NCBI GenBank assembly: GCA_963761825.1
Contig: CAVXIH010000005.1
Span: 74,992-138,991 of the forward strand
Length of the DNA: 64,000 nucleotides
Origin: an uncultured Acidobacteriota bacterium
GTDB taxonomy: Bacteria; Acidobacteriota; UBA6911
Reading direction: 5' to 3'
Positions 48,056 through 63,438 of this stretch are shown one piece after another. The translations under genes were made by a program, and so were the position numbers. The notes below the pieces were generated by a model. The model was not told the origin of the DNA. It ran no database searches and saw only the letters and a program-made list of their open reading frames with translations. Every line of letters starts with the position of its first letter. Position 1 is the stretch's first letter.

Positions 48056-49261
48056 TTAGCACAATCCGCGGAAGGGAGACAGGGCGCGGTCGAGGACACC
48101 CAGGGAATAGGTGATGGCGACTCCATAGTTGGTGATCGGGACGCGGGCTTCGCGGCAGCGCATAATGCGGGAAATCACTTCGCGCCGGTTCAGCATGCAC
48201 GCGCCGCACTGGACGATCAGCTGATAGGAACTAATATCTTCGGGAAAATCGTGTCCTTGCCGGTGCACAAATTCCAGGTCCACTCCCGTATACTGCCGAA
48301 TCCAGCGGGGGATCTTGACTCTTCCGATGTCTTCGCCGATCGGGTGGTGCGCGCAGGACTCCAGAACCAGGATGCGGTTTCCGGGCTGCAGCGTGTCGAT
48401 GGTTTTGACTCCGCGCACGAACTCCTTCAGATCGCCTTTCAAACGCGCAAACAGGATTGAAAATGACGTCATCGGGACCTGGCTGGGCGTATCGCCCGCG
48501 ACCCGCAGGAACGCCTGGGAATCCGTGACTACGAGGGCCGGCGGATTTTTGAGTTTATCCAGCGCATCCTGCAGTTCGCGCTCTTTAACCACCATGCAGC
48601 AGGAATCATGATCCAGGACATCGCGGATCGACTGCACCTGCGGCAGGATGAGTCTTCCCTTCGGGGCTTCCAAATCGATGGGGACGACCAGGACCACAAC
48701 TTCGCCGGGATTGATCAAATCGCCTAATACCGGGGGAGAGTCCATAAATTCCTCCGGCGCTGTGCGTATCAGGGCTTCCCGAAGCTCAAGCATGCCTTTG
48801 CCCTGGCTGGCGACCGTCTCCACGACGGGGAGATTGCGGGACTTGAGATTTTGCAGCACCTCCGCGCGCGGCGCACCGCAATCGCTCTTATTGAACACCA
48901 CGATGACGGGCACCTTGCGTTTCAACATTTCAGCCAGGATGCTCTCTTCGAACTCTCCCCAGCAATTTCCTTCTGCCACCAGGATTCCCATATCCGTGCG
49001 CTCAAAAATAAGCCGCGTCCTCTCGGCCCGCATTTCACCCAGGGCGCCGACGTCATCGATGCCTGCCGTATCGATAAACAGGACTGGCCCGAGCGGCAGC
49101 AGCTCCATTGGTTTTTCCACCGGATCCGTGGTCGTTCCCGGCACATCCGAAACAATGGAAACCTGCTGGCGGGTCAACGCATTCAGCAGCGAGGATTTAC
49201 CCACATTGCGCCGGCCGAACAGTCCGATATGCAGCCGCATTCCTTTCGGCGTGTCTTTCAT
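48056..49261 (-). CDS. hydF: [FeFe]-hydrogenase maturation GTPase
   Basis: GRRNVGKSS, GTTTDPV, DTAG, APKGRLILPQ, TDSQAF, ESCAHH, QCGACM. Confidence 0.97.
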   Translation of the reverse strand: MKDTPKGMRLHIGLFGRRNVGKSSLLNALTRQQVSIVSDVPGTTTDPVEKPMELLPLGPVLFIDTAGIDDVGALGEMRAERTRLIFERTDMGILVAEGNCWGEFEESILAEMLKRKVPVIVVFNKSDCGAPRAEVLQNLKSRNLPVVETVASQGKGMLELREALIRTAPEEFMDSPPVLGDLINPGEVVVLVVPIDLEAPKGRLILPQVQSIRDVLDHDSCCMVVKERELQDALDKLKNPPALVVTDSQAFLRVAGDTPSQVPMTSFSILFARLKGDLKEFVRGVKTIDTLQPGNRILVLESCAHHPIGEDIGRVKIPRWIRQYTGVDLEFVHRQGHDFPEDISSYQLIVQCGACMLNRREVISRIMRCREARVPITNYGVAITYSLGVLDRALSPFRGLC

Positions 49262-50676
49262 TCTTTTCCCTCAGGTTCGCAGGCGGTGACCCGAGCCGGG
49301 CAACGTTCTCGGGAGAGATCAGCTGATCGAATTGTTCCGGAGTCAGGCTTCCCTCTTCCAGCACAACCTGGCGCACTGTTCTTCCTTCCGCGCGCGCGCG
49401 GCGCGCAATGGCTTGAACCTTCTCATAGCCCAGCAATGCAACCAGCGCCGTGAGAGTTGCGGTGGCGCCTTCCACATGCGTTCGGCAGCGGGACTCATCC
49501 GCCGTAATCCCCGCCACGCAGTGCTCACAAAAGATGCGGCAGGCATTGCGCAAAAGATCCAGACTGCCGAGCAGCGCATCCGCAACCAGCGGCAGAAAGG
49601 CGTTCAGCTCCAGGTTGCCCATCGCGCATGCCTGAGCAATGGCTTGATCGTTGGCCATCACCATGATCGCCGCTTGGGATACCGCCTCCGGAATAACCGG
49701 ATTCACCTTGCCGGGCATGATGGAGGACCCCGCCTGGCGCGCCGGCAAATGGATCTCGCCGAAACCGGCGTCGGGTCCTGAAGACAGCAGACGCAGGTCC
49801 GTCGCAATTTTCAATAGATTGGTTGCGCACGCTTTCAGAATGCCGCTGACTTCGACAAAAACATCGGCGTTCTGCGTACACTCGACAAGGTTCTCGGCGC
49901 GCGCCAGCCCCATTCGTGTAATTTCCCGCAATTGATCGACGACGCCGAAGATGTAGCGCCTGGGAGCGGCAATACCGGTCCCGATAGCCGTACCTCCGAG
50001 ATTGACGATGCGCAGCCTCTCCTCGCACTTATAGATGCGCCAGCGGTCCCGTGCGAAAGCCTCCGCATACGCGCCCATTTCGCGGCCCAGGGTAGTCAGT
50101 ACCGCATCCTGGAGCTGTGTTCTGCCGACCTTCACGATGTGCGCGAATTCCTGCTCCTTGCGCTGGAACTCTTCAAGCAGGCGCACTACGTCGCGCTGCA
50201 AAAGCCGCAGCAATTGAATGCCCGCCACTTTCAGAGCGGTCGGATAGGTATCGTTCGTGGATTGATGCAGATTGATATCTTCGAGCGGGCTAACCGTTGA
50301 ATAGTCGCCCAAAGGTCTTCCGAGAATCTGCAGGGCGCGGTTGGCCAGGACCTCGTTGACATTCATGTTCGTGGAGGTGCCGGCGCCCCCCTGAAGAGCA
50401 TCCACCCGGATAGCGGCGTCCAGATGCCCTTCCATCATTTCCGTACAGGCGGTTTCAATAGCGCTCGCCTTTTCATCATCCCACCAGCCCAGTTCATGAT
50501 TGGTTCTGGCGCATGCAAGCTTCACGGCGCCATAGGCATGGATGAGCGCAGGATTGACCGGCCGCAGTGCCAGCGCGAAATTTTCAATGGCGCGTTCGGT
50601 GTAGATGCCGTGCAGCGCATCCGCCGGCACGTCCCGTGAACCCAGAAGATCCTGCTCTGTTCGATACAGTCATCAT
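49197..50676 (-). CDS. aspA: Aspartate ammonia-lyase; indel at the 5' end and probably at the 3' end
   Basis: QGGAGTSTNMNVNEV, QSTND, KVGRTQLQDA, GSSIMPGKVNPV. Confidence 0.9.
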
Positions 50677-52321: not shown

Positions 52322-53455
52322 TTACGCAGCCTTGAGAGTATTGTGAAGCGTCACGGTAAACGTGCTGCCGATATCCGGCTTGCTTTTGACAGTGATTTCG
52401 CCGTTGTAGAGCGTGACGAGCTTTTTCAGCGTGGACAGTCCCAGGCCGCTCCCCAGGATATTGCGGGTTTTTTCGTTCTTGATTCTTGAGAAGTCGCTGA
52501 AGAGGCGCTGGGTTTCTTCCTGGGTCATGCCGATTCCGGTGTCTTCCACCTGGATTCGGATTTCATCTCCGGTCATGCCGACCGTGACACCGACACGCCC
52601 CTGGTCCCGGTTATATTTCACCGCATTGGAAATAAGATTATTGAAAATCATCTCGATCTCCGTGCGGTCCGCCTCCATGAACAATCCGGCGGGCACATCC
52701 AGCTGAACCGAGATACTGCGGCGCTCGATCTCCGCTTTGACGTTTTCGATCGCCTGGCGGGCGACGTCCGACAGATCGACCGCGGTCGGCGTGCGTTGTC
52801 TCTGCCCGGACTCGATGGAAGTCAAGTCCAGCAGATCCGTGATCAGCTTTCGCATTCCTTCGATACGGATCAGGCACCGATCCAGCATGTGATCGTAATC
52901 TTCCAGCTTGTTGCCGACCGAGCGTTCATGGATCATCTGGAGATAACCCTCGATGGCGGCGATGGGAGCCTTCATCTCATGGGCCAGAACGGAGATGAAC
53001 TGAAAACGCACCTGCCGTTTTTCCTCGGCCAGCCTGCGGGCCTGCCGCTGCAGGATGAGGTGCCGCGCTGCCTTGCGCACCGCGCCGCGCAGTTCCTCCG
53101 GTGTAAACGGTTTGGCCAGGAAATCGTAGGCGCCGCGGCGCGTAGCGGTGACGGCGGTATCCAGCGAGGCATAGGCGGTAATCATGATGACCAGGAGGTC
53201 GAGAGAGCTTTTGCTGAGCCGGTCCAGGATATCCAGGCCGGTGGTATCCGGCAGCTTGTGATCGAGAATGAGAATGTCGGTCGGCCCTTCACTCATCTTC
53301 TCTTCCAGTTCCTTGCCGGTGGCCGCCGTCCTTATGTCGAATCGGACCTCACCGCCAATATCGGGAAGACTCACAATGATATCCCGCAGCGCCCGCTCGG
53401 CGCCTCGCCGCATGCCAAATTCGTCATCCACGATGAGGATGTTCAGGATATCCAC
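52322..53455 (-). CDS. Hybrid receiver-histidine kinase
   Basis: REC domain (ILIVDDE, LDHKLPD, KPF), then HEMKAP, NLISNAVKY, DTGIG, GSGLGL. Confidence 0.93.
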   Translation of the reverse strand: MDILNILIVDDEFGMRRGAERALRDIIVSLPDIGGEVRFDIRTAATGKELEEKMSEGPTDILILDHKLPDTTGLDILDRLSKSSLDLLVIMITAYASLDTAVTATRRGAYDFLAKPFTPEELRGAVRKAARHLILQRQARRLAEEKRQVRFQFISVLAHEMKAPIAAIEGYLQMIHERSVGNKLEDYDHMLDRCLIRIEGMRKLITDLLDLTSIESGQRQRTPTAVDLSDVARQAIENVKAEIERRSISVQLDVPAGLFMEADRTEIEMIFNNLISNAVKYNRDQGRVGVTVGMTGDEIRIQVEDTGIGMTQEETQRLFSDFSRIKNEKTRNILGSGLGLSTLKKLVTLYNGEITVKSKPDIGSTFTVTLHNTLKAA

Positions 53456-53472: not shown

Positions 53473-53856
53473 TTAAAGTTTGCCGCTCAAAAGCTTGTCC
53501 GCTTCATCCGCCAGCACGCGCGGATTGATGGGCTTTTCCAAAAACTTGCTGACCGGCAGCCAGGTCTCGTCGGGCTGGAACGTGTAGCCGAGCCGCATCT
53601 CCTTGCTGATGCCCGTCAGCATGATCATGGGCATGGTGGGATACAGGGCGTGCAACCGGCGGGCAAGTTCGAAACCGGCGGTCTTGTCTTCCATCATGAC
53701 ATCCAGCACGGCAAGGTCGGGCTCTTCTGTTTGCGCGATCTTCTGGGCTTCGGCCGAGGAATACGCCACATGGACGGTGTGGCCCCGTTGAGCAAACACG
53801 GTTCGGTTCATTTCGATAAGGTCCTGATCGTCATCCACCAACAGTATCTGGGCCAT
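53473..53856 (-). CDS. Single-domain response regulator
   Basis: ILLVDDD, VLDVMM, MLTG, EKP. Confidence 0.93.
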   Translation of the reverse strand: MAQILLVDDDQDLIEMNRTVFAQRGHTVHVAYSSAEAQKIAQTEEPDLAVLDVMMEDKTAGFELARRLHALYPTMPMIMLTGISKEMRLGYTFQPDETWLPVSKFLEKPINPRVLADEADKLLSGKL

Positions 53857-53887: not shown

Positions 53888-55886
53888 TTACTCTTCCGGA
53901 GCCTTCCGGGGGAGTTTAACCGTAAATTGAGTTCCCGTCTGCCCCGCAGACGGATCGTTATTGGACATCATCATGATGTCCCCCCGGTGCATCTTGACAA
54001 TGCCGTAGGTGACGGCAAGCCCGAGTCCGGTCCCTTTTCCGATCTGCTTGGTTGTAAAAAATGGTTCAAAAATCTTTCCCTGGTTTTCCTTGGAAATTCC
54101 GCTTCCCGTGTCTTTGATCGAGAACCAGACATCGCGCTCGTTGCTGCCGATGCTGATCGTGAGACTGCCTCCATCGGGCATGGCGTCGCACGCATTGCTG
54201 AACAGATTGGTGATGACCTGGTTGATCTGGTCCGGGTCCAGATCGACTTTCGGATTTTCAATCGCCGATTCGATGCGTGCCTGAATATTGGCGGGGAACG
54301 GGTACGCTTTCACCGCGCGCTGCATCAGCTTGCAGAGATCCACGATGCGGAAGACCGCCTTATTCTGCCGCGCAAAGTGGAGCAGGCGGACGACGATCTT
54401 TTTGCACCGGTCGGCCTGCTCCGCGATCATGTCGAGATCTTCGCGCCAATCCGGGAATTTTTCCGCCTGCTCCAGCAGCATGTGCGCATGCATCAGAACG
54501 ATGCCGAGCGGATTATTGACTTCGTGCGCCACGCCTGCGGCCAGTTGTCCCATGCTGGCGAGCCGCTCCGAATGCATGAGCGCTTCCTGCGTGCTGACCA
54601 GTTGCTGATGGGAAACCGCCAGCTGCTTGACGGTATCGCGCAGTTTGTCGATGGTGTAGGGCAGGCACATTTCGGTTTCGGCCAGCCGGAGATGAATGGC
54701 GATCGCGTGCTGGACGCAGGAATCATACCCGCAGGCGCCGCAGTTAAGCTCATCTTCCGGTTTCACTTTGCCCATCCGGGCAAGAATCTTGGAAATTTCT
54801 TCGCGGGACGGCGGCGTAAAGCGCTGATCATGGGTACTGAATTCCCGCGACAGATCTATGTCGGAAAATGTTGCGACATCCTGTTCCCACTGTTGCTTGT
54901 GTTCTTCGGTCCAGCGCTTCTGAACATAGTTCCCGACGAGGCTGCGCCGCCGAAAGAGAGCGGCGCTGGTGGTCATGCCGGCGCCCATGATGCAGCCATT
55001 GCAGCAGAGGATTTCCAGCAGGCGCGCAGTCCACACTGTTCGACTCGACCGCTTGAATCGCCTCCACGAAGCTGGTGCGGCCATCCGTAGCCATTACTTC
55101 CCCGGTTCATCAAATTCTCCTGGATATCCGCCGCCTGCAGCAATCCTCGGCTGATCGGGAACAAACCTCCCGGGCCGCTCCACGGCGGATCAAACTCACT
55201 GGCCTCAACGGTTTCCGGACGGACACCTGCTTCGCCAAGCATCTGTCGGAGTTCCCGAACGTCAACACGGCATCAACGTCCCCTTCCAGCTTTTCGCTGG
55301 CGGCTTCGCCTTTTTTTGCGATGCAGGGACCGATGAACACCACGGGCACTTCCGGCCCGTACAGACGGTGCACGATCCGGGCGGCGGCGACCATAGGGGA
55401 AACGATCGGGGCGAGCTTGGGGACAAGATCGGGATAATACCGCTCGACATATCCGACAAGCGCCGGGCAGGTCGTGGCGATATAATTGGTCCTGTCCGGG
55501 CTGTCCAGAAGCTCCCGATAGCGCCGGGCGACGAGGTCGGCGGCGAATCCGACTTCGTGGACATATCGAAACCCAGCGCCCGCAGCATCCCAACAACTTT
55601 TTCGTACTCGACATTCCTCGAATTCCGCAGGAAAGCTCGGCGCCATGAGGGCTGCGACGGCTCCGCCCTGATTCAGCAAATGCTTGACCTGCTGCGTCCC
55701 GTCCAGCACCTTCTTGGCGCCCTGGCTGCAAACCCGGGCGCAGTTGCCGCAGCCGATGCAGCGTTCCGGGATGACGTTGGCCTGGCCGTCCGAAATTCCG
55801 ATCGCCTTGGCCGGGCACTCCCGCACGCATGTGTAGCAGACCCGGCATCGCTCTTTGATCGTCTGTACGAAACATGCAGATTGCAT
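53888..55886 (-). CDS. Sensory [FeFe]-hydrogenase-like domain fused to a histidine kinase (group C type), frameshifted
   Basis: Two 4Fe-4S motifs (CRVCYTCVREC, CIGCGNC); IATTCPA, IGPCIAKKGE, EILCCNGCIMG; NCGACGYDSC FeS domain; AHEVNNP, NACDAM, GKGTGLGL. Confidence 0.85.
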
Positions 55887-55896
55887 GGTTGCCCCG

Positions 55897-56314
55897 TTAA
55901 TGGCCTGTCGAGGGAGTATGCTCCGGTTCTTCGTTGAGCAATCTGCGGACTTCAGCCTTCAGCTGTTCCGGCCGGACAGGCTTATCCATGATCTTATCCA
56001 CTTTGATCCAGGACTGCTCGTCCGCATGCCGTGCCGAAAAGGACAGTCCCGTCGCCCCGGCAACGGCAGTCAGCAGGATCACAGGCATTTCCGGGTACAG
56101 CTTTTTGAGCTGATGGCTGAGCACGAAACCGGAGTCTTTCTCCTCCATCATCAGATCCAGAACGGCCAGATCCGGCTTCACCTTGAGGATCGCTTCCTCG
56201 GCCTCCCGCCTGTCCTTCGGCTGCAGTCACATCATATCCCGCGGCGGTCAGCATAGCGGTTATTTGTTCGAGGAGATCCAAATCATCGTCCACGACCAGT
56301 ATTTTCTTTTTCAC
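55897..56314 (-). CDS. Single-domain response regulator, frameshifted
   Basis: KILVVDDD, VLDLMM, LLTA, DKP. Confidence 0.88.
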
Positions 56315-56368
56315 TCTCGTAATCTCCCTTTCTTCAAACTTGCTTCAGCCCGTCCGCACAATCTATCT

Positions 56369-58086
56369 CTACAGCACATCCCTGGGATCGTAGTGGGTAT
56401 GAAGCAGGCTGTGACTCTTCTCGCCGAGCGGCTTCCCGAGAAACTCATCATACAGCCGAACGATATAGGGATTCTTGTGGCTGACGCGAGCCTTTTCGTT
56501 CTGGTCGATTTTGTACAGCGCCTGCATGCGGGCGCGCGCGGCGTTGATATCGGCGTTGATCGGCTGCCCGCCGCCGTTGATGCATCCGCCGGGGCAGGTC
56601 ATGACCTCGATGAAATGAAGATCCTTGCGGCCGGCCCGGATCTCTTCCAGCAGTTTGCGGGCGTTGCCGAGGCCGCTCACGACCGCGGCGCCGACTTCCA
56701 GGTCGCCGATCTTGGCGCGGAGTTCCTTGGCGCCCTTCATCCCGCGCAGCGGCTGAATGTCCAGCTTGGCCATTTCCTTGCCGGTGAGCAGATAGTGTGC
56801 CGTGCGGACCGCCGCTTCCATCACGCCGCCGCTGGCGCCGAAAATCTTGCCGGCCGTGGACCGTTCGCCGAACGGCGTATCGGCCGTCTGCGGAGTCATC
56901 GCCAGCAAGTCCACGCCATACATGCGCAACAGCTGCCCCAGTTCCCGCGTCGTCAGCACATAATCCACATCCGGGACATGATCCGGAGCCATTTCCGGGC
57001 GGCTGCTCTCAAACTTCTTGGCGGTGCACGGCATGATCGAAACGCTGACAATCTGCGCCGGATCGATGTTTTCGCGCTGCGCAAAGTAGCTCTTGATGAT
57101 CGCGCCCATCATCTGCTGCGGGCTTTTGCAGGACGACAGGTTCGGGATGAATTCAGGATAGAACTGCTCCACAAACTTGATCCAGCCCGGCGAACAGCTC
57201 GTGAACATCGGCAGGGCGCCGCCCGTGCTGAATCCGCTGCGCCAATTCGGACGCTTCTTCCATGATGGTCAGGTCGGCCGTGAACGATGTGTCGAACACG
57301 CGGTCGAATCCGATGCGCCGCAGCGCCGCGACCATCTTGCCGTCGACATCCTGGCCGGGTTCCATGCCGAATTCCTCGGCCAGGCTGACCGAAACCGACG
57401 GAGCGTGCTGCACGACAACCAGTTTCTTCGGATCCTCGAGCGCCGCGATCACTTCTTCCAGATACGACCGTTCGGTGAGCGCGCCGGTGGGACAGCCGAC
57501 GATGCACTGGCCGCAATTGATGCAGGTCGACACATTCAGGCCCTGGTCAAACGCCGTGCCGATGTATGCCTTGCAGCCGCGGCCGACAAAATCGATGGCC
57601 CCGATGCCCTGGATCTCTTCGCAGATGCGCACGCAGCGGCCGCACAGGATGCACTTCTCCGGATCCCGGACGATGGGACCGGAGACGTCCTTTTCCTGCT
57701 CATTCCGTTTGCCCCGGAACATGCGCTGCCGGATGCCCATGCTTTGCGACAGCTGCTGCAGATCGCATTTGCCGCTCCGCGCGCAGTAGAGGCAGTCATC
57801 CGGGTGATTGCTCGAGGAGCAGCTCGACAATCGTCCGGCGCGCGTCCAGCACTCTCGGCGAACGGGTCTGAATTTTCATCCCCGGAGCCACGGGAAAGGA
57901 GCATGCCGGAACAAAGTTCTGCGCCCCTTCCATTTCCACGATGCACATGCGGCATGCGCCGCTCGGCAGCAGCCCTTCCATGTGGCACAGGGTCGGGACG
58001 TGAATCCCTTCCCTTTTCAATGCCGAGAGAATCGTCTCTCCATCTTTTGCTTCAATAGTCCTGCCATCCACTTGCATTTCAATCAT
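56369..58086 (-). CDS. hydA: [FeFe]-hydrogenase catalytic subunit (group A, M3 architecture), frameshifted
   Basis: 2Fe-2S, His-ligated 4Fe-4S (NHPDDCLYC) and two 4Fe-4S sites; H-cluster motifs TSCSPGW, MPCTAKKFE, EVMTCPGGCING. Confidence 0.95.
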
Positions 58087-58116: not shown

Positions 58117-61100
58117 TCAGTGCGGTTGCGTGAATTCCAGATCGCAGCGCGCACAGCGCCGCGCTTCCGCCAGTACATTCTCTTCGCTCGGGCACAATTC
58201 CACTTCAGCGAAACATTTCTTTCGCTGCGCGACCGGCAGCAGCGGCAGTTCCAGCCGATAGGTTTCTCCGGTCTCCTCGTCCACTTCCATGAAAGGCTCC
58301 ACATAGATCGAGGGGAGCTTGACTTTGGGCAGGACCTTCATAAGCTTGCCCGATACGTAGCGGTCGATCATGGCCGCCGCCTGCTTGCCCACGGCAATCG
58401 CGGCGATCACCGTGCTCGGACCGCTGACGACATCGCCGCCGGCGAATACGCCTTCCCTGCTGGTGATAAAGGATTCTTCGTTGATCTTAACGGTTCCCCA
58501 CGAAGACAGGCCGAGGCCTTCCAGCCCGGCCGGTTCCGGCTCCTCGCTGATCGCGACAATCAGCGTGTCCAGTTCCACATCGAACTCCGAGCCTTTGACC
58601 GGGACCGGTTTGCGCCGGCCGGATGCATCCGGGGCGCCCAGCTGGTTGCGCAGCGAACGCAGGCCGGTCAAACGCCCTCCGCTGCTGTGAACCGCCACCG
58701 GAGTAACCAGCTCTTCCAGGATGACGCCTTCCGCGAGTCCGGCCTCGACTTCTTCTTTGTAGGCCGGCATTTCTTCGCGGCGTGCGGCGATAGAAGACGG
58801 TCACGCTCTCGACTCCGGGCTGGCGGATCGCTACGCGCGCCGCATCCATGGCCGAGTTGCCGCCGCCGACGATGCCGACGCGACCGCGCGCCATCGACTT
58901 GCCTTCAAGGTTGTAGGCCTTGAGGAACTTGATGCCGGGGATGATTCCGGCAACCTCTTCGCCCGGCAGATCAAGCTTCTTGCTGGCGTGGGATCCGGTT
59001 GCGATGAAAACGGCTTTATAGCCATCCTCGAACAGCTTGTCGATCGTAAAGTCGCGGCCCAGAGCCTGCCCGAAACGCATTTCGATATTCTGATTCATCA
59101 GGGCCGCGATTTCCCTCTGCAGGCCTTCGCGCGGCAGGCGGTATTCAGGGATGGCGGCCGTCAGCATCCCGCCGGCCATCCCTTCGCGCTCAAACACCGT
59201 CACGCGGTGCCCGAGCGCGGAAAGTGAATTCGCCGCAGTCAGGCCGGCCGGCCCGGCGCCGATGACGGCGATGCGCGCTGCGTCCTTGCCCGCCGGCACA
59301 ATCGGCGATCTTGCCGGGCGCAACCACGCTGTCGACCACAAAGCGCTTCAGCGTCCGGATAGCGATAGGCTCGCCTCCGGTCGCGCCCGCACGGCAAACC
59401 TGTTCGCACGGATGATGGCAAACGCGGGCACAGGCGGAAGGGAACGGGTTGGCTTCGCGGATCACGCGGTAGGCGTCGTCGTACTCGCCGCGCGCGATGT
59501 GCGCCACATAGCGCCAGACCTCGGTGCCGACCGGGCAGCCGTTCTGGCAGGGCGCTCCGACCAGGTCCTTGCACGACCCGGACGGGCAGCGGCGCTCGAA
59601 AACATGCGCTTCATATTCATCGCGGAACCACTTGCAGCGTGCTCAGCACCGGATTCGGCGCCGACTGACCCAGTCCGCACAGGCTGGTGGACCGGATGGT
59701 TTCAGCCAGCTTCTTCAGGTGCATGATTCCCTGGACGCGCAACAGAGCATCCAGATCGCTCTCCTTGTGGCGCGGACGCGTGATGGCTTCCAGGATTTCC
59801 AGCATGCGCCGCGTCCCTTCACGGCAGGGAATGCATTTGCCGCAGCTCTCGTTCTGGATGAATTCCATGAAGTATTTGGCAAAATCGACCATGCAGGTGG
59901 ATTCGTCCACCACAACCAGTCCGCCCGACCCCATGATCGTGCCGAAGTTTTTCAGTTCTTCGTAATCCGTCGGCAGATCCATGTGCGCCTCCGGCACGCA
60001 ACCGCCGGAAGGGCCGCCGATTTGAACTGCTTTGCATTTTTTGTTACCGGGAATGCCGCCGCCGATGTCGAACACGACTTCACGAAGAGACGTTCCCATC
60101 GGGATCTCCACAAGCCCGGTTCGTCTTAACCATGCCGGAGAGCGCGAAAACCTTCGTTCCTTTGCTCCCCTTGGTCCCCATCGCCGCATACCATTCGGCG
60201 CCGCGATCCAGGATGACAGCCAGGTTTGCCAGAGTTTCGACGTTGTTGATGACGGTGGGTTTGCCGAACAAACCCTGGACTGCGGGGAACGGAGGACGAG
60301 GCCGCGGCATGCCGCGCTTCCCTTCTATCGAGTGGATCAGGGCCGTCTCTTCGCCGCACACAAATGCGCCGGCGCCCATTTTCATTTTGATCGAGAAATC
60401 CACGCCGCTGTCGAGGATGTTATAGCCGATCAAGCCGCAGGCGGACGCCTGCTCAAACGCCTCGCTGAGCCGCTGGATCGCCAGCGGGTATTCAGCGCGG
60501 ATATAGACGTACGCCTTGGTGGCGCCTATAGCGTAGGCCGCAATCAGCATGCCTTCGAGCAGCCGATGCGGATCGCTTTCGCAGACCGCTCGATCCATAA
60601 ATGCGCCGGGATCCCCTTCGTCGGCGTTGCAGATCAGGTATTTCTGATCGGCTGCGGCAGCCCGCGCAAATTTCCACTTTTTGCCGGTAGGAAAACCTCC
60701 GCCGCCGCGTCCGCGGAGTCCGCTCTTCTCGATCAGATCGCAGACCGCATCCGGCGTCATCGTTCTTAGAACTTTTGCGATCGAACCATAGCCGCCGTGC
60801 GCGATGTATTCATGAATGTTGCCGGGATCGATGATGCCGCTGGAAGCAAGCACTACGCGAACCTGGCTCGCAAGGAACGGATGCTCGTCGAGGTTTGCGA
60901 TCCCGTCCCAGGGCTTGGCGCTGCCTGCGCGATACTGGCCCAGAACCAATTCGGTAGGAATGCGGTTCTCGAGCAGCACCGCATCAAGCACTTCCGGAAC
61001 CTTGTCGGCCGTGACCGTGCTGAAACTCACGCGCGCGCGGCCGGGGACCTGAATGTCCATGATCGGTTCGTCGGAACACATGCCGTTGCAGCCGACTTCA

Positions 61101-61393
61101 ACGACATCCGCATTGATATTGTGCTGTTCCAGGAATTCCCGGACGGCTGCAAGGGTTTTGCCGGCTCCGGCGCCCAGGCCGCATGTGCCTGCGCCCACGA
61201 AAATCGCGGGCTGCGCCACCGTATCGCGCCTCAGTGAAGCCAGCACGGCCGCCAGTTCCCGGGGACCTTTGGCCCTCGCGTTGACAAAGAGGTCGGCTTT
61301 GAGGTCCTTCAGCAGGGTGTCGGATATTTCACTAAAATTGACCCAGCATTTGCCGGCACCATCTATGATTGCAGTATCAGTATTAGCGGCCAT
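58117..61393 (-). CDS. HydB/NuoF-like flavoprotein fused to a GltD/NfnA-like FAD oxidoreductase (about 1090 aa), several frameshifts
   Basis: Thioredoxin-like 2Fe-2S; [47 protein letters not shown]; in-frame continuation into APCQNGCP...[35 protein letters not shown]. Confidence 0.88.
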
Positions 61394-61856
61394 TCTTAGA
61401 CTCCATTTCCCTACATTCCTGTATGATTTTGACCAGCTTCTGGGGCGTGACTTTGGCGTAAAACTCGCCGTTAAGGTTCATCACCGGCGATAAGCCGCAG
61501 GCGCCCATGCAGGCAACAGTTTCCAGGCTGAACAGGCGGTCTCTGGAGGTCTGGCCCGGCTTCAGCTTCAGCAGTTTCTGAGCCATTTCCAGCACCCGGT
61601 TGGATCCTTTGACGTGGCAGGCCGTTCCCCGGCAAACCATGACGTGATACTTGCCTTTAGGCTGAAAGCGGAACTGGTTGTAAAAGGTCGCAACCCCGAA
61701 AATTTTTGTGGTCGGAAGATTGAGATGCTTGCCGATGCGGACAACCGCTTCGCGAGAAAGATAGCCCTGATTTTCCTGGACTTCCTGCAGGATCGGGATG
61801 AGTGCGTCGCGCCCGGCGCGGGGGTGCTTCTTTAGTATCGAATCCACATCATTCAT
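61383..61856 (-). CDS. hydC: HydC/NuoE-like 2Fe-2S subunit
   Basis: LIPILQEVQ, ATFYNQF, VCRGTACH, CMGACGLSP. Confidence 0.93.
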   Translation of the reverse strand: MNDVDSILKKHPRAGRDALIPILQEVQENQGYLSREAVVRIGKHLNLPTTKIFGVATFYNQFRFQPKGKYHVMVCRGTACHVKGSNRVLEMAQKLLKLKPGQTSRDRLFSLETVACMGACGLSPVMNLNGEFYAKVTPQKLVKIIQECREMESKNGR

Positions 61857-62542
61857 AAATTGATCTCCTTATTAACCGTTTCGGAAGCCGGCTTTTTAAG
61901 AGCGGGTCTTTCCGATTTCAGAGACTGGCGCGCAAAATACGCCACTCGGTCCATCGACATCGCCAGATCGATGTCTTCGACATAAACACCGGACGGCACG
62001 TGCAAAGCAGTTCGCGCAAAATTCAGGATGCCGCGGATGCCCGCTTCCACATACACATCCGATACATATTGAGCTTCCTTGTCGGGAACCGCGATGATTC
62101 CGACCGTAATGCACTGCTCCCGAATAACGCTCGCAGCATTCTCGATGGAGTAGCATGGACAACCGTGGATCAAGCGGCCAAATTTATCGGGATTGGTTTC
62201 TAATGAGGCCACGATTTTGAGGGTTGGCCGGCGGCCGAGAAAAAACTTCAGAAGGGCGCGCCCGATATTGCCGACACCGGCGATAATGGCTCGCTGTTCT
62301 TCGGCCGGGAAAACGAATGCTTCGATATGATCCCGGAGTTTTTTGACATCATACCCCCGGGCAGGAGTGCCGGAGTACCCTACGACCATGAGGTCGCGTC
62401 GCACCTGGGCGGCTGTGACGCGTGATCTTGAGGCAAGATCGTGCGAATAAATATAGGTTTCTCCTTCACTCGCGAGATCTCTAAGTATACGCCAGTAAAG
62501 AGTTAAGCGCCCAATAGTCCTATACGGCACCGCATCAACCAT
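61853..62542 (-). CDS. rex: Redox-sensing transcriptional repressor
   Basis: RLTLY, QVRRDL, GY, GVGNIGRAL, IIAVP, GILNFA. Confidence 0.93.
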   Translation of the reverse strand: MVDAVPYRTIGRLTLYWRILRDLASEGETYIYSHDLASRSRVTAAQVRRDLMVVGYSGTPARGYDVKKLRDHIEAFVFPAEEQRAIIAGVGNIGRALLKFFLGRRPTLKIVASLETNPDKFGRLIHGCPCYSIENAASVIREQCITVGIIAVPDKEAQYVSDVYVEAGIRGILNFARTALHVPSGVYVEDIDLAMSMDRVAYFARQSLKSERPALKKPASETVNKEINL

Positions 62543-62565: not shown

Positions 62566-62594
62566 ATTGTGAATTATTTCACAATATGTGTCAA
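62566..62594 (-). promoter_or_regulatory. Sigma70 promoter overlapped by a Rex operator
   Basis: TTGTGAA-TTAT-TTCACAA (62567-62584) matches the Rex consensus; on the minus strand TTGACA (62594-62589), 17 nt, CACAAT (62571-62566). Confidence 0.85.
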
Positions 62595-62613: not shown

Positions 62614-63438
62614 CGTACCTGGTTATACTGTCCCCATTTCAAAAAGACAACCCAGGTCAGATTTAAGCTTTTTCAAATCAGGCTTTTTTATCCAATTGCA
62701 GCCTATATTTGCCCTGAGCCGATCTTCGATACTCTTGTTCCAGTTTTTTTGTGATTTCCTTTGGGCCGCAAAATCGCCCAGTTCTTGTAGCCCTTCGGAT
62801 TCGATCGTGAGCGTCTCTTTTGGAAGCTGCCTGAATCAGGTATTCCCGCCATGAGTACCGGTCGAAGTGTTTGCGCCAGAGATCCATGTCGAGTAGGCCT
62901 GAATGATCTTCTCCTGTAAGATGGGCGCGCGCACTTGACCATTCCCAATCTAACGGATTTTCCACGATGCCCGCGCGAACGGGATTTAGTTCTATATAGG
63001 CAAGGGCCTCCCACATATCGTAAACGGGACATGAGAAGAAGCGGCCTTGCCACAGATGGCCGGTCCGATTGCAGCGGAGGTTCTGATACCGTGCAAAATC
63101 TCGATCCAGGGTGCGCATAGCCTGGGACAAAGAGTCTTCCGTTCGTGGAATGGGGGCCTGATGTACATGATTGGTCATGAGGGAGTGACCCAGCACCATC
63201 ACCTCTTTGGCTTCCACCTGGCCCTCCAGCAATCCGAGGTAGAATTTGCGGTCTTCATCAGAAAAAAAGACATTCTGGCGGTGATTCCCACGCTGGGTCA
63301 CATGGTGAACGTAACCAGGAATTACTAGCCGGGGCTTTCTCGCCATGCTTGTAATGTTTCACGAGCTGTCTTATTATTTCACCAAAATGCAGGAATTATC
63401 CAGATGACGAGGCAAAGGGGACAGTATAACCAGGTACG
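62614..63438 (-). mobile_element. HUH Y1 transposase element bounded by a perfect 22-bp inverted repeat
   Basis: CGTACCTGGTTATACTGTCCCC (62614-62635) and GGGGACAGTATAACCAGGTACG (63417-63438). Confidence 0.85.
62678..63346 (-). CDS. REP-associated tyrosine transposase (Y1_Tnp)
   Basis: HHVTQRGNHRQ, LMTNHVH (HUH), GHLWQGRF, AYIELNPVRAG, WEWSS. Confidence 0.93.
   Translation of the reverse strand: MARKPRLVIPGYVHHVTQRGNHRQNVFFSDEDRKFYLGLLEGQVEAKEVMVLGHSLMTNHVHQAPIPRTEDSLSQAMRTLDRDFARYQNLRCNRTGHLWQGRFFSCPVYDMWEALAYIELNPVRAGIVENPLDWEWSSARAHLTGEDHSGLLDMDLWRKHFDRYSWREYLIQAASKRDAHDRIRRATRTGRFCGPKEITKKLEQEYRRSAQGKYRLQLDKKA

Follow-up and report, generated by a model that had tools for sequence, protein, structure and literature searches.

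A putatively sensory [FeFe]-hydrogenase joined to a histidine kinase in the hydrogenase operon of an uncultured Acidobacteriota bacterium

The window, the whole stretch of DNA that was analyzed (64,000 nucleotides), carries a hydrogenase operon on its minus strand with the gene order rex-hydCBA-REC-[HydS-HK]-REC-[REC-HK]-hydG-aspA-like-hydF. HydS-HK is the gene of interest, and its neighbors are as follows.

62566 to 62594, minus strand: sigma70-like promoter (TTGACA-17-CACAAT) with an overlapping Rex operator
61856 to 62542, minus strand: rex, redox-sensing (NADH/NAD+) repressor (Pfam Put_DNA-bind_N and CoA_binding)
61386 to 61856, minus strand: hydC, NuoE-like [2Fe-2S] subunit
58120 to 61393, minus strand: hydB, NuoF-like flavoprotein with a fused GltD/NfnB-like domain; orthologs are 1090 aa long, four frame changes here
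56372 to 58086, minus strand: hydA, catalytic [FeFe]-hydrogenase, group A, bifurcating type (NF040763, 825 bits); two frame changes here
55897 to 56329, minus strand: upstream single-domain response regulator; 157 aa in orthologs, one frame change here
53476 to 53856, minus strand: downstream single-domain response regulator, 127 aa; acidic pocket DD, acceptor Asp52, Thr81 and Lys108 kept
52322 to 53455, minus strand: receiver-first hybrid kinase, REC-HisKA-HATPase_c, 377 aa
50767 to 52160, minus strand: hydG maturase (radical SAM; TIGR03955, 484 bits for the ortholog); one frame change here
49197 to 50666, minus strand: aspartate ammonia-lyase-like gene between hydG and hydF
48056 to 49261, minus strand: hydF maturase GTPase (HydF_tetramer, HydF_dimer, MMR_HSR1)

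The sequence-only reading had placed the fusion inside the hydrogenase operon, and HydS-HK does lie beside hydA, the receivers and the maturases, a position that is conserved across phyla. The receiver Asp, Thr and Lys are conserved. The remaining maturase gene, hydE, was found elsewhere in the genome with a score above the family cut-off; HydE, HydF and HydG are all encoded. The TSCSP motif of the neighboring HydA was considered as an oddity and dropped, as Acetobacterium woodii HydA1 (PDB 7Q4V) has the same motif, making it a natural variant.

HydS-HK starts with the ATG at 55886 and ends with the stop codon at 53888-53890, exactly the extent that had been proposed. The following features were located within it.

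53888 to 55886, minus strand: HydS-HK gene, sensory-type [FeFe]-hydrogenase plus histidine kinase; 665 aa in orthologs, five frame changes here
55725 to 55847, minus strand: two N-terminal [4Fe-4S] ferredoxin motifs (Fer4 Pfam matches), cysteines invariant
55461 to 55481, minus strand: H-cluster motif P1, IATTCPA; Thr at the Cys299 position, ligand Cys300 retained
55305 to 55334, minus strand: H-cluster motif P2, IGPCIAKKGE; Met353 replaced by Gly, ligand Cys, Lys and Glu retained
54977 to 55015, minus strand: H-cluster motif P3, EILCCNGCIMGAG; Met497 replaced by Leu, one additional Cys, equivalents of Cys499 and Cys503 retained
54665 to 54742, minus strand: C-terminal FeS domain PF04060 (Pfam and motif), CGACGYDSC...C, Cx2Cx4Cx16C
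54527 to 54664, minus strand: helical connector of fixed length; 47 residues from the last FeS Cys to the phospho-His, continuing into DHp helix 1
53891 to 54529, minus strand: HisKA/HATPase_c transmitter; H box AHEVNNP, N box NLFSNACDAM, G1 DTGSGI, F box FEPFFTTK, G2 GKGTGLGL
55028 to 55611, no strand assigned: stretch with all five frame changes (near 55611, 55572, 55256, 55105 and 55028)

The motifs that had been quoted from the sequence (the N-terminal 4Fe-4S pair, IATTCPA, IGPCIAKKGE, P3, CGACGYDSC and AHEVNNP) were all found. The domains follow one another as two [4Fe-4S] motifs (CRVCYTCVRECP at 55812-55847 and CIGCGNCARVCS at 55725-55760), the H-domain, a small-subunit-like wrap, the Cx2Cx4Cx16C FeS domain, the 47-residue helix, and DHp plus CA. 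In Pfam searches, the frame-broken 5' piece matched Fe_hyd_lg_C (PF02906, E 1.4e-32) along with two Fer4 motifs, and the 398-aa ORF at the 3' end matched PF04060 (2e-06), HisKA (2.4e-13) and HATPase_c (3.6e-24). The H-domain was present in all 120 of the closest homologs. The fold model resembles [FeFe]-hydrogenases (E down to 1e-21), and AlphaFold2 was confident about both the H-domain (pLDDT > 90) and the CA domain. No group C or kinase-fused protein has a solved structure; the best H-domain matches were T. kivui HydA1 or CbA5H.

The kinase half has the H-box His (H box at 54509-54529) and the N, G1, F and G2 boxes of class I (HisKA) kinases of the NtrB/AtoS/ZraS-like type. Residues H454, N560, N564, D592, G594, G596, F609, F610, G616, G618, G620 and G622 are invariant, and the closest solved relative is ZraS (9JFJ, E 5e-35). 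The connector is 47 residues long in 118 of 119 homologs. The AlphaFold2 monomer has helices at 408-426, 430-436 and 441-476, leading from the connector into DHp, with low confidence for the connector and DHp. Pfam detected no PAS domain in HydS-HK or in any of its 120 closest homologs, in line with the initial view that the protein lacks one. A concealed sensor domain, PAS or otherwise, ahead of the kinase was likewise rejected, since there was no Pfam match and the connector from the FeS domain leaves no room for it. Because a C-terminal PAS domain is missing, HydS-HK does not belong to subclass M2f (the type of Thermotoga maritima HydS, TmHydS). There is no dedicated NCBIfam model for the protein, and every match fell under its cut-off; as a result, public labels read '4Fe-4S binding protein' or '[Fe-Fe] hydrogenase large subunit C-terminal domain-containing protein'. 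The organism's own genome contains kinase-domain paralogs but no second copy of HydS-HK. Some congeners carry a paralog that is 43-46% identical.

Due to the five frame changes, HydS-HK is not a single ORF in this assembly. Each change is a single-base length difference relative to six intact orthologs, and the frame stays open throughout the kinase half (53888-55084). Intact single-ORF orthologs of 665 aa, 75-93% identical, occur in genomes of the same genus, eleven of which have an uninterrupted ORF, and all 120 top homologs share the architecture at ~665 aa. The hydrogenase and kinase halves had been read as one gene, and the orthologs bear this out; two separate genes are ruled out because every ortholog is a single ~665-aa ORF.

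Another possible explanation for the breaks is that HydS-HK is a pseudogene in this organism, with its hydrogenase half inactivated by genuine frameshifts. All five changes fall inside the H-domain, the kinase half is free of them, obvious homopolymers are absent at the sites, and the density (five breaks in 2 kb) is somewhat higher than the operon average of ~0.9 per kb. Nevertheless, this explanation is highly improbable. The hyd operon, which spans 14.5 kb, contains at least 13 frame changes, with hydA, hydB and hydG broken in a like manner. The essential rpoB gene, located on contig C16, is split into four or more frame pieces, compared to one frame in genome G005. The read-through protein retains all 167 family-invariant residues, and its only in-frame stops are those produced by the shifts. 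Compared with the nearest ortholog, it is 91% identical over the H-domain, 94% over the middle part and 96% over the kinase. Since the neighboring hyd genes and rpoB are likewise broken and every invariant residue is kept, the five frame changes are, judging by these comparisons, assembly errors, and neither decay nor a sign of two genes. Gene-specific decay was judged unlikely for the same reasons, the breaks being genome-wide.

The H-cluster ligands C140, C188, C295 and C298, which correspond to C300, C355, C499 and C503 of CpI, are invariant in 57 sequences and are retained in the window protein. They align with the ligands of T. kivui HydA1 and of the neighboring HydA, and remain invariant across many phyla in sequences down to ~55% identity. 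G186, P187, C188, K191, K192 and E194 of P2 are invariant in the family, as are A82-P83-S84. We take A82-P83-S84, K191 and E194 to be the counterparts of the cyanide-ligand contacts P231/S232, K358 and E361 of CpI. Of 114 homologs, 112 have Thr or Ser in place of the proton-relay Cys299. This protein has Thr at 299, Gly at 353 and Leu at 497, which confirms the Thr and Leu that had been noted from the sequence. The position that presumably corresponds to Ser319 is Ala. The E279/E282/R286 stretch is four residues shorter in HydS-HK, and the alignment there is unreliable. [quoted passage not shown]

The fusion of a hydrogenase to a kinase is not new. It is widespread and, as the sequence-only reading had stated of a kinase-linked subgroup, has been predicted from genomes several times (HydDB group C, Elusimicrobia, Hydrogenedentota, Caldithrix). 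HydDB [FeFe] group C1 is named 'histidine kinase-linked (putative)' (PMC5037454). Like HydS-HK, its members are putative H2 sensors acting via histidine kinases, and the group is defined by sequence clustering and gene context. The Hydrogenedentota 'BfuT' proteins of sub-type V clusters have as their best HydDB match WP_006928132.1, the Caldithrix abyssi type (PMC11406978), and a kinase-fused type has been described for Elusimicrobia lineage V, Ignavibacterium and Caldithrix (bioRxiv 10.1101/765248). Both types share with HydS-HK the H-domain-kinase fusion without PAS, a location directly beside trimeric hydCBA, and Rex nearby. A kinase-fused group C gene that follows hydA in a hydCBA cluster, by which the BfuT sub-type V cassette is recognized, is what was found in the window (order rex-hydC-hydB-hydA-REC-HydS-HK). 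This genus differs from these types by an extra stand-alone receiver upstream and the long HydB-GltD fusion, and otherwise there is no essential difference. Published accounts disagree as to whether the kinase-fused proteins belong to C1 or to C3: HydDB reportedly places the kinase-fused, hydA-adjacent type in C3, and the best C1 reference is without a kinase domain (PMC11406978). No biochemical test of any kinase-fused member was found in the literature.

Two putatively sensory [FeFe]-hydrogenases without a fused kinase, TmHydS and Thermoanaerobacter mathranii HydS (TamHydS), bind the H-cluster and react with H2, and both are reported to have the Cx2Cx4Cx16C motif at the C-terminus (PMC8163306). 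TmHydS (group C, M2f) also shares with HydS-HK the two N-terminal [4Fe-4S] motifs, the missing Cys299 relay and Gly in place of Met353. It has Ser at 497 and a PAS domain at its C-terminus, whereas HydS-HK has Leu at 497 and, instead of PAS, HisKA/HATPase_c attached via the 47-residue helix. TamHydS (group D, M2e) resembles HydS-HK in the absence of PAS, Leu at 497 and the C-terminal four-Cys cluster, but has Ser rather than Gly at 353 and no kinase in the same polypeptide. Its gene adjoins those of a bifurcating hydrogenase and of a separate, kinase-like protein, and its H2 chemistry is slow and CO-tolerant. A similar logic is found in the regulatory [NiFe]-hydrogenase system HoxBC, HoxJ and HoxA (HydDB [NiFe] group 2b), in which a low-activity hydrogenase acts on a histidine kinase that governs hydrogenase genes. 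In contrast to HydS-HK, this system has an unrelated metal site and fold, its sensor and kinase are two proteins with a PAS-like link, and it acts through a known DNA-binding regulator.

The cassette rex-hydC-hydB-hydA-[HydS-HK]-REC-[REC-HK]-hydG-aspA-like-hydF is conserved across 80 genomes from many phyla. HydA is encoded directly upstream of HydS-HK in 61 of 67 loci, including those of the Hydrogenedentota MAGs L057 and L069, whose homologs are 57-58% identical to HydS-HK and lie in the same gene order. A REC follows HydS-HK directly in 56 of the 67 loci, a REC-HK homolog lies downstream in 65, and rex was found upstream in 35 of 47 loci.

The regulatory output of the cassette was also considered. 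A perfect predicted Rex operator, TTGTGAATTATTTCACAA, at 62567-62584 overlaps the operon promoter. All three receiver proteins of the cluster are without an output domain, and the cluster encodes no transcription factor other than Rex. Although the kinase is NtrB-like, no sigma54 -24/-12 promoter element (TGGCAC-N5-TTGC) occurs in 47-64 kb, and there is no sigma54-type (NtrC-like) partner regulator in the window. With Rex as the only DNA-binding output of the cluster, control of the operon by HydS-HK is hypothetical.

This organization could mean that HydS-HK is an accessory 'T' subunit on HydABC, with the kinase and receivers tuning the activity or assembly of the enzyme after translation and not its expression. 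The position immediately after hydA in most loci, the receiver-only proteins and receiver-first kinase with no DNA-binding output, and the literature name BfuT, which denotes a subunit, would all agree with such a role. We consider it quite unlikely, as the solved HydABC structures 8A6T, 7Q4V and 7P5H were matched to the HydA subunit only, and output regulators may be encoded elsewhere. It is also only a partial rival to hydrogen sensing because the two are compatible.

HydS-HK is probably a hydrogen sensor. At a probability of roughly 0.6, we favor the reading that it is a soluble sensor kinase of ~665 aa with a group C-like input, in which H2 is signaled through the H-cluster to the kinase. 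We infer H-cluster insertion, the response to H2 and regulation of the kinase alike. HydE, HydF and HydG would insert a genuine [2Fe] subcluster into HydS-HK. The replacement of the relay Cys by Thr, Ser319 by Ala, Met353 by Gly and Met497 by Leu would make turnover slow and, as a proposed consequence, the redox state of the H-cluster would report ambient H2 instead of driving catalytic flux. Electrons would equilibrate across the accessory clusters, of which the C-terminal one caps the connector helix, and the redox or conformational state of this C-terminal cluster would travel along the fixed-length helix to the dimeric DHp, where it would switch autophosphorylation of the conserved His. 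The phosphoryl group could then pass to the adjacent single-domain receivers, the receiver-first kinase, or both, forming a short cascade; the cluster encodes no DNA-binding protein as its final target. Rex at the operator over the promoter would provide a separate NADH/NAD+ input.

The same chain of clusters could instead serve a general redox or electron-pool sensor, which would equilibrate with ferredoxin or HydABC so that the kinase reports the reduction state of the cell, with the H-domain reduced to a vestigial scaffold, whether or not the [2Fe] subcluster is present. There are five cluster sites, the last immediately ahead of the kinase helix, the group A proton relay is lost, and the gene co-occurs with Rex, another redox sensor. 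Furthermore, the authors of the Hydrogenedentota study report that H-cluster motifs were not found in their 'C1' set (PMC11406978), suggesting that some kinase-linked relatives may not bind the cofactor. However, the H-cluster cysteines and the mapped cyanide-ligand contacts (APS and Lys) are invariant across the phyla sampled, which is hard to explain without a bound [2Fe] site. The gene travels with hydG and hydF, and TmHydS and TamHydS retain a reactive H-cluster despite comparable substitutions. A general redox sensor is, thus, rather unlikely.

A more speculative extension of hydrogen sensing, which we regard as unlikely, is a self-contained kinase-to-kinase relay that is gated by H2 and consists of HydS-HK, the stand-alone receiver or receivers, and the receiver-first kinase. 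This relay may have moved with hydCBA and hydG/hydF over more than 10 phyla with no transcription-factor output in the cassette, and would end in protein-protein action on the bifurcating hydrogenase, its maturation or Rex. If true, H2 metabolism would be under post-translational control, with the 47-residue helix reading the state of the C-terminal [4Fe-4S] cluster.

For putatively sensory [FeFe]-hydrogenases, the question is how H2 is signaled onward, as the two characterized examples, TmHydS and TamHydS, are without a defined output. The value of the finding lies with the whole large and already noted family and not with this copy. The present sequence needs polishing, and the better object of study is an intact ortholog or the homolog from cultured Caldithrix abyssi named in the literature. 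Since hydrogenase and kinase are joined in one polypeptide, autophosphorylation and phosphotransfer could be assayed directly as a readout in the presence and absence of H2. Such a protein is, thus, attractive as a model and might serve as a part in H2 biosensors.

The fusion of a sensory-type [FeFe]-hydrogenase to a histidine kinase, here called HydS-HK, was read from the window as the following gene:

53888-55886, minus strand: HydS-HK, ATG at 55886, stop codon at 53888-53890

The ORF scan of the window found no single ORF across this interval. The 3' part is one open frame of 398 codons (53888-55084), and the 5' third contains five frame switches. In Pfam, the 5' pieces matched Fe_hyd_lg_C (E 1.4e-32) and two Fer4 motifs, and the 3' piece matched an FeS domain (PF04060), HisKA (2.4e-13) and HATPase_c (3.6e-24). 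All the motifs quoted in the sequence-only reading were located within this interval, among them the two 4Fe-4S motifs (55725-55847), IATTCPA (55461-55481), IGPCIAKKGE (55305-55334), CGACGYDSC with its fourth Cys (54665-54742) and AHEVNNP (54509-54529). Its description of HydS-HK is accurate, well past chance, and the overall verdict is that the feature is real and was correctly interpreted.

The read-through translation (668 aa) was used as the query for a homolog search, and the top 120 matches were examined. All of them carry the identical domain set, nearly all are 664-669 aa long and the best is 93% identical. An uninterrupted full-length frame was also found in 11 same-genus genomes at 75-88% identity. 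The two halves therefore belong to a single gene, as had been proposed. Several congeners contain a second full-length paralog with 43-46% identity; in one of them the two copies lie 18 kb apart (G017:C70, 75651-77597 and 93127-95118). The source genome has a single copy.

Aligned to six intact orthologs, this copy differs in length by one base at each of five places, near 55611, 55572, 55256, 55105 and 55028. Such breaks could mean that this copy is a true pseudogene, which we regard as very unlikely. Counted against the proteins of an 88%-identical relative, neighbouring genes are broken too (one frame change each in hydG and the upstream receiver, two in hydA and four in hydB), with at least 13 frame changes in 14.5 kb of the operon. 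The rpoB gene of the source genome, on another contig (C16:43352-47583), is split into four or more frame pieces and contains stops, while it is one frame in the relative G005, and the remaining Fe_hyd_lg_C loci are likewise split. The read-through protein retains all 167 alignment columns that show no variation across 57 homologs, and its identity to the closest ortholog rises from 91% (H-domain) through 94% (middle part) to 96% (kinase). From this pattern, we concluded that the frame breaks are consensus errors. The assembly comprises 4.6 Mb in 16 contigs, which fits a long-read MAG. Single-base length errors are frequent genome-wide, and findings of a "frameshifted gene" from this genome should be discounted until the assembly is polished.

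The active site was aligned to Thermoanaerobacter kivui HydA1 and to the neighbouring catalytic HydA. The four H-cluster ligands (C140, C188, C295 and C298, numbered on the intact 665-aa ortholog) are retained and invariant in the homolog alignment. A82-P83-S84 and K191/E194 are also invariant among homologs; they map to P231/S232 and K358/E361 of CpI, which we take to be the cyanide-ligand partners. This conserved pocket argues that HydS-HK binds a genuine [2Fe] site. The maturase genes hydG and hydF lie within the operon and hydE elsewhere in the genome. In CpI numbering, position 299 is Thr (Thr or Ser in 112/114 homologs, Ala in 2/114), 353 is Gly and 497 is Leu, bearing out the reported changes of the proton-transfer Cys to Thr and of the L3 Met to Leu. 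The position mapped to Ser319 is Ala, and the stretch covering E279, E282 and R286 is Arg-rich and four residues shorter, so that no reliable counterparts of these three residues emerged from the alignments. An extra conserved Cys immediately precedes the Cys499-equivalent ligand (LCCNGC, 54977-55015) in about 105 of 120 homologs. HydS of Thermotoga maritima (TmHydS) has Gly353 and Ser497, and that of Thermoanaerobacter mathranii (TamHydS) has Ser353 and Leu497; in both, Cys299 is missing, an H-cluster is bound and turnover is slow (PMC8163306). HydS-HK, also without Cys299, shares Gly353 with TmHydS but not its Ser497, and Leu497 with TamHydS but not its Ser353. Its substitutions follow the pattern published for sensory-type enzymes.

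The anatomy of the protein, in residues of the intact ortholog, is as follows:

Residues 1-60: two ferredoxin-type [4Fe-4S] motifs
Residues about 60-300: H-domain
Residues about 300-380: helical wrap in place of the small subunit
Residues 382-407: Cx2Cx4Cx16C C-terminal cluster motif, described in TmHydS and TamHydS (PMC8163306)
Residues 408-453: connector helix
Residue 454: phospho-acceptor His of AHEVNNP
Up to residue 665: DHp helix 2 and ATP-binding domain

The N, G1, F and G2 boxes of the ATP-binding domain are all invariant among homologs. In an AlphaFold2 monomer model built on a 57-sequence alignment, the H-domain had pLDDT >90 and the CA domain good confidence. The connector and DHp were modelled with low confidence, as is to be expected when a dimeric four-helix bundle is predicted as a monomer. 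Foldseek matched the N-terminal half to the [FeFe]-hydrogenases CbA5H, DdH, T. kivui and T. maritima HydA, and CpI (E down to 1e-21). The last FeS cysteine and the phospho-His are 47 residues apart in 118/119 homologs. Such constant spacing points to a helical coupler that is rigid and phase-sensitive. It also leaves no space for a PAS domain, as the sequence-only reading had noted; domain annotation detected no PAS domain in HydS-HK or any of the top 120 homologs.

In relatives, the minus-strand gene order is rex, hydC, hydB, hydA, a receiver, HydS-HK, a second receiver, a REC-HisKA-HATPase_c gene, hydG, an aspartate ammonia-lyase-like gene and hydF, and it is identical in the window. The relatives' products measure 1090 aa (HydB, NuoF-like plus GltD-like), 571 aa (HydA), 157 aa (upstream receiver), 665 aa (HydS-HK), 127 aa (downstream receiver) and 377 aa (REC-HisKA-HATPase_c). 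HydS-HK lies in an operon with the catalytic enzyme and maturases. Gaps of 11-31 nt flank it, and a search inside the cluster found no convincing terminator. A one-genome-per-species scan returned 214 relatives; the best 80 of these, all MAGs, belong to Acidobacteriota, Planctomycetota, Lentisphaeria, Latescibacterota, Hydrogenedentota, Fermentibacterota, Gemmatimonadales, Anaerolineaceae, Polyangiaceae and others.

Neighbours of HydS-HK, counted over loci with enough flank
hydA, directly upstream: 61/67
hydB, nearby: 47/52
hydC, nearby: 47/52
rex, nearby: 35/47
Receiver, directly downstream: 56/67
Receiver-first hybrid kinase, downstream: 65/67
hydG, nearby: 38/53
hydF, nearby: 31/47

The receivers of the cluster retain the acidic pocket, acceptor Asp, Thr and Lys, and all three receiver proteins lack an output domain. 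Besides transporters, the window flanks encode a BamB-like protein and an IS200-like transposase, and no further regulator. A less likely rival reading is that HydS-HK is an accessory subunit acting on HydABC.

Several neighbouring genes have features of their own. hydB (58120-61393) encodes a 1090-aa protein in which a NuoF-like flavoprotein is fused to a GltD/NfnB-like domain (Fer4_20 and Pyr_redox_2), and which may use NADPH or a second nucleotide as partner. This long form is present in the genus and some Planctomycetota; in most other phyla HydB is short. The aspartate ammonia-lyase-like gene (49197-50666) stands between hydG and hydF in many phyla; this conserved position suggests that it contributes to H-cluster maturation, perhaps by supplying nitrogen. 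In hydA (56372-58086, minus strand), motif P1 (about 57205) reads TSCSP for the textbook TSCCP, the Ser standing at the position numbered here as ligand Cys300. TSCSP is shared by 70/70 of the neighbouring HydA proteins, from various phyla, and by Acetobacterium woodii HydA1 (PDB 7Q4V), and so looks to be natural variation among enzymes of the bifurcating type. Elsewhere in the source genome (C9:192130-198235), a weak, frame-split second Fe_hyd_lg_C match is followed by HydC-like, HydB-like and HydA-N-terminal-like genes; this region is possibly a further cluster of hydrogenase-like or Nfn-like type.

The promoter scan found no sigma54 element around the operon. It placed a sigma70-like promoter ahead of rex, 25 nt away, with this operator:

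62567-62584: perfect 18-bp Rex operator TTGTGAATTATTTCACAA, overlapping the -10 element of the predicted promoter (within 62566-62594)

The operon is probably auto-repressed by Rex responding to NADH/NAD+. An IS200/Y1-transposase-like ORF (62678-63346, minus strand) lies directly upstream of the promoter.

Kinase-linked relatives have been predicted before. In HydDB, [FeFe] group C1 carries the label "histidine kinase-linked (putative)" (PMC5037454), and an Elusimicrobia study likened a kinase-fused type to Ignavibacterium and Caldithrix (bioRxiv 10.1101/765248). In a 2024 Hydrogenedentota study, the product encoded downstream of bfuA was described as "BfuT" and has a histidine-kinase domain; HydDB classed it as C3, with a Caldithrix abyssi protein as best match (PMC11406978). 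Hydrogenedentota loci in our set (L057 and L069) match the window cassette in gene order. The literature search turned up no biochemistry on any kinase-fused member, NCBIfam has no dedicated model, and structure-database and Foldseek searches found no solved structure of the type.

The architecture, conserved ligands and kinase boxes, fixed connector and conserved cassette are established. In the proposed mechanism, the module would bind an H-cluster that equilibrates with H2 and does not turn over fast, because proton exit would be impaired. By way of the accessory clusters, its redox state would reach the C-terminal cluster, which would cap the connector; a general redox sensor is a less likely rival reading here. 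In the H2-sensing mechanism, the connector helix would relay this state to the DHp dimer, setting kinase versus phosphatase activity, and the phosphoryl group would pass to the stand-alone receivers and/or the receiver-first hybrid kinase. Rex would exert separate NADH/NAD+ control over the promoter. HydS-HK is one more member of a widespread, genome-predicted kind, in this case a copy in a noisy assembly, and its only specific addition is that the cassette is confirmed in another acidobacterial genus. The kinase-fused family is well suited to experiments on signalling by [FeFe] sensors.
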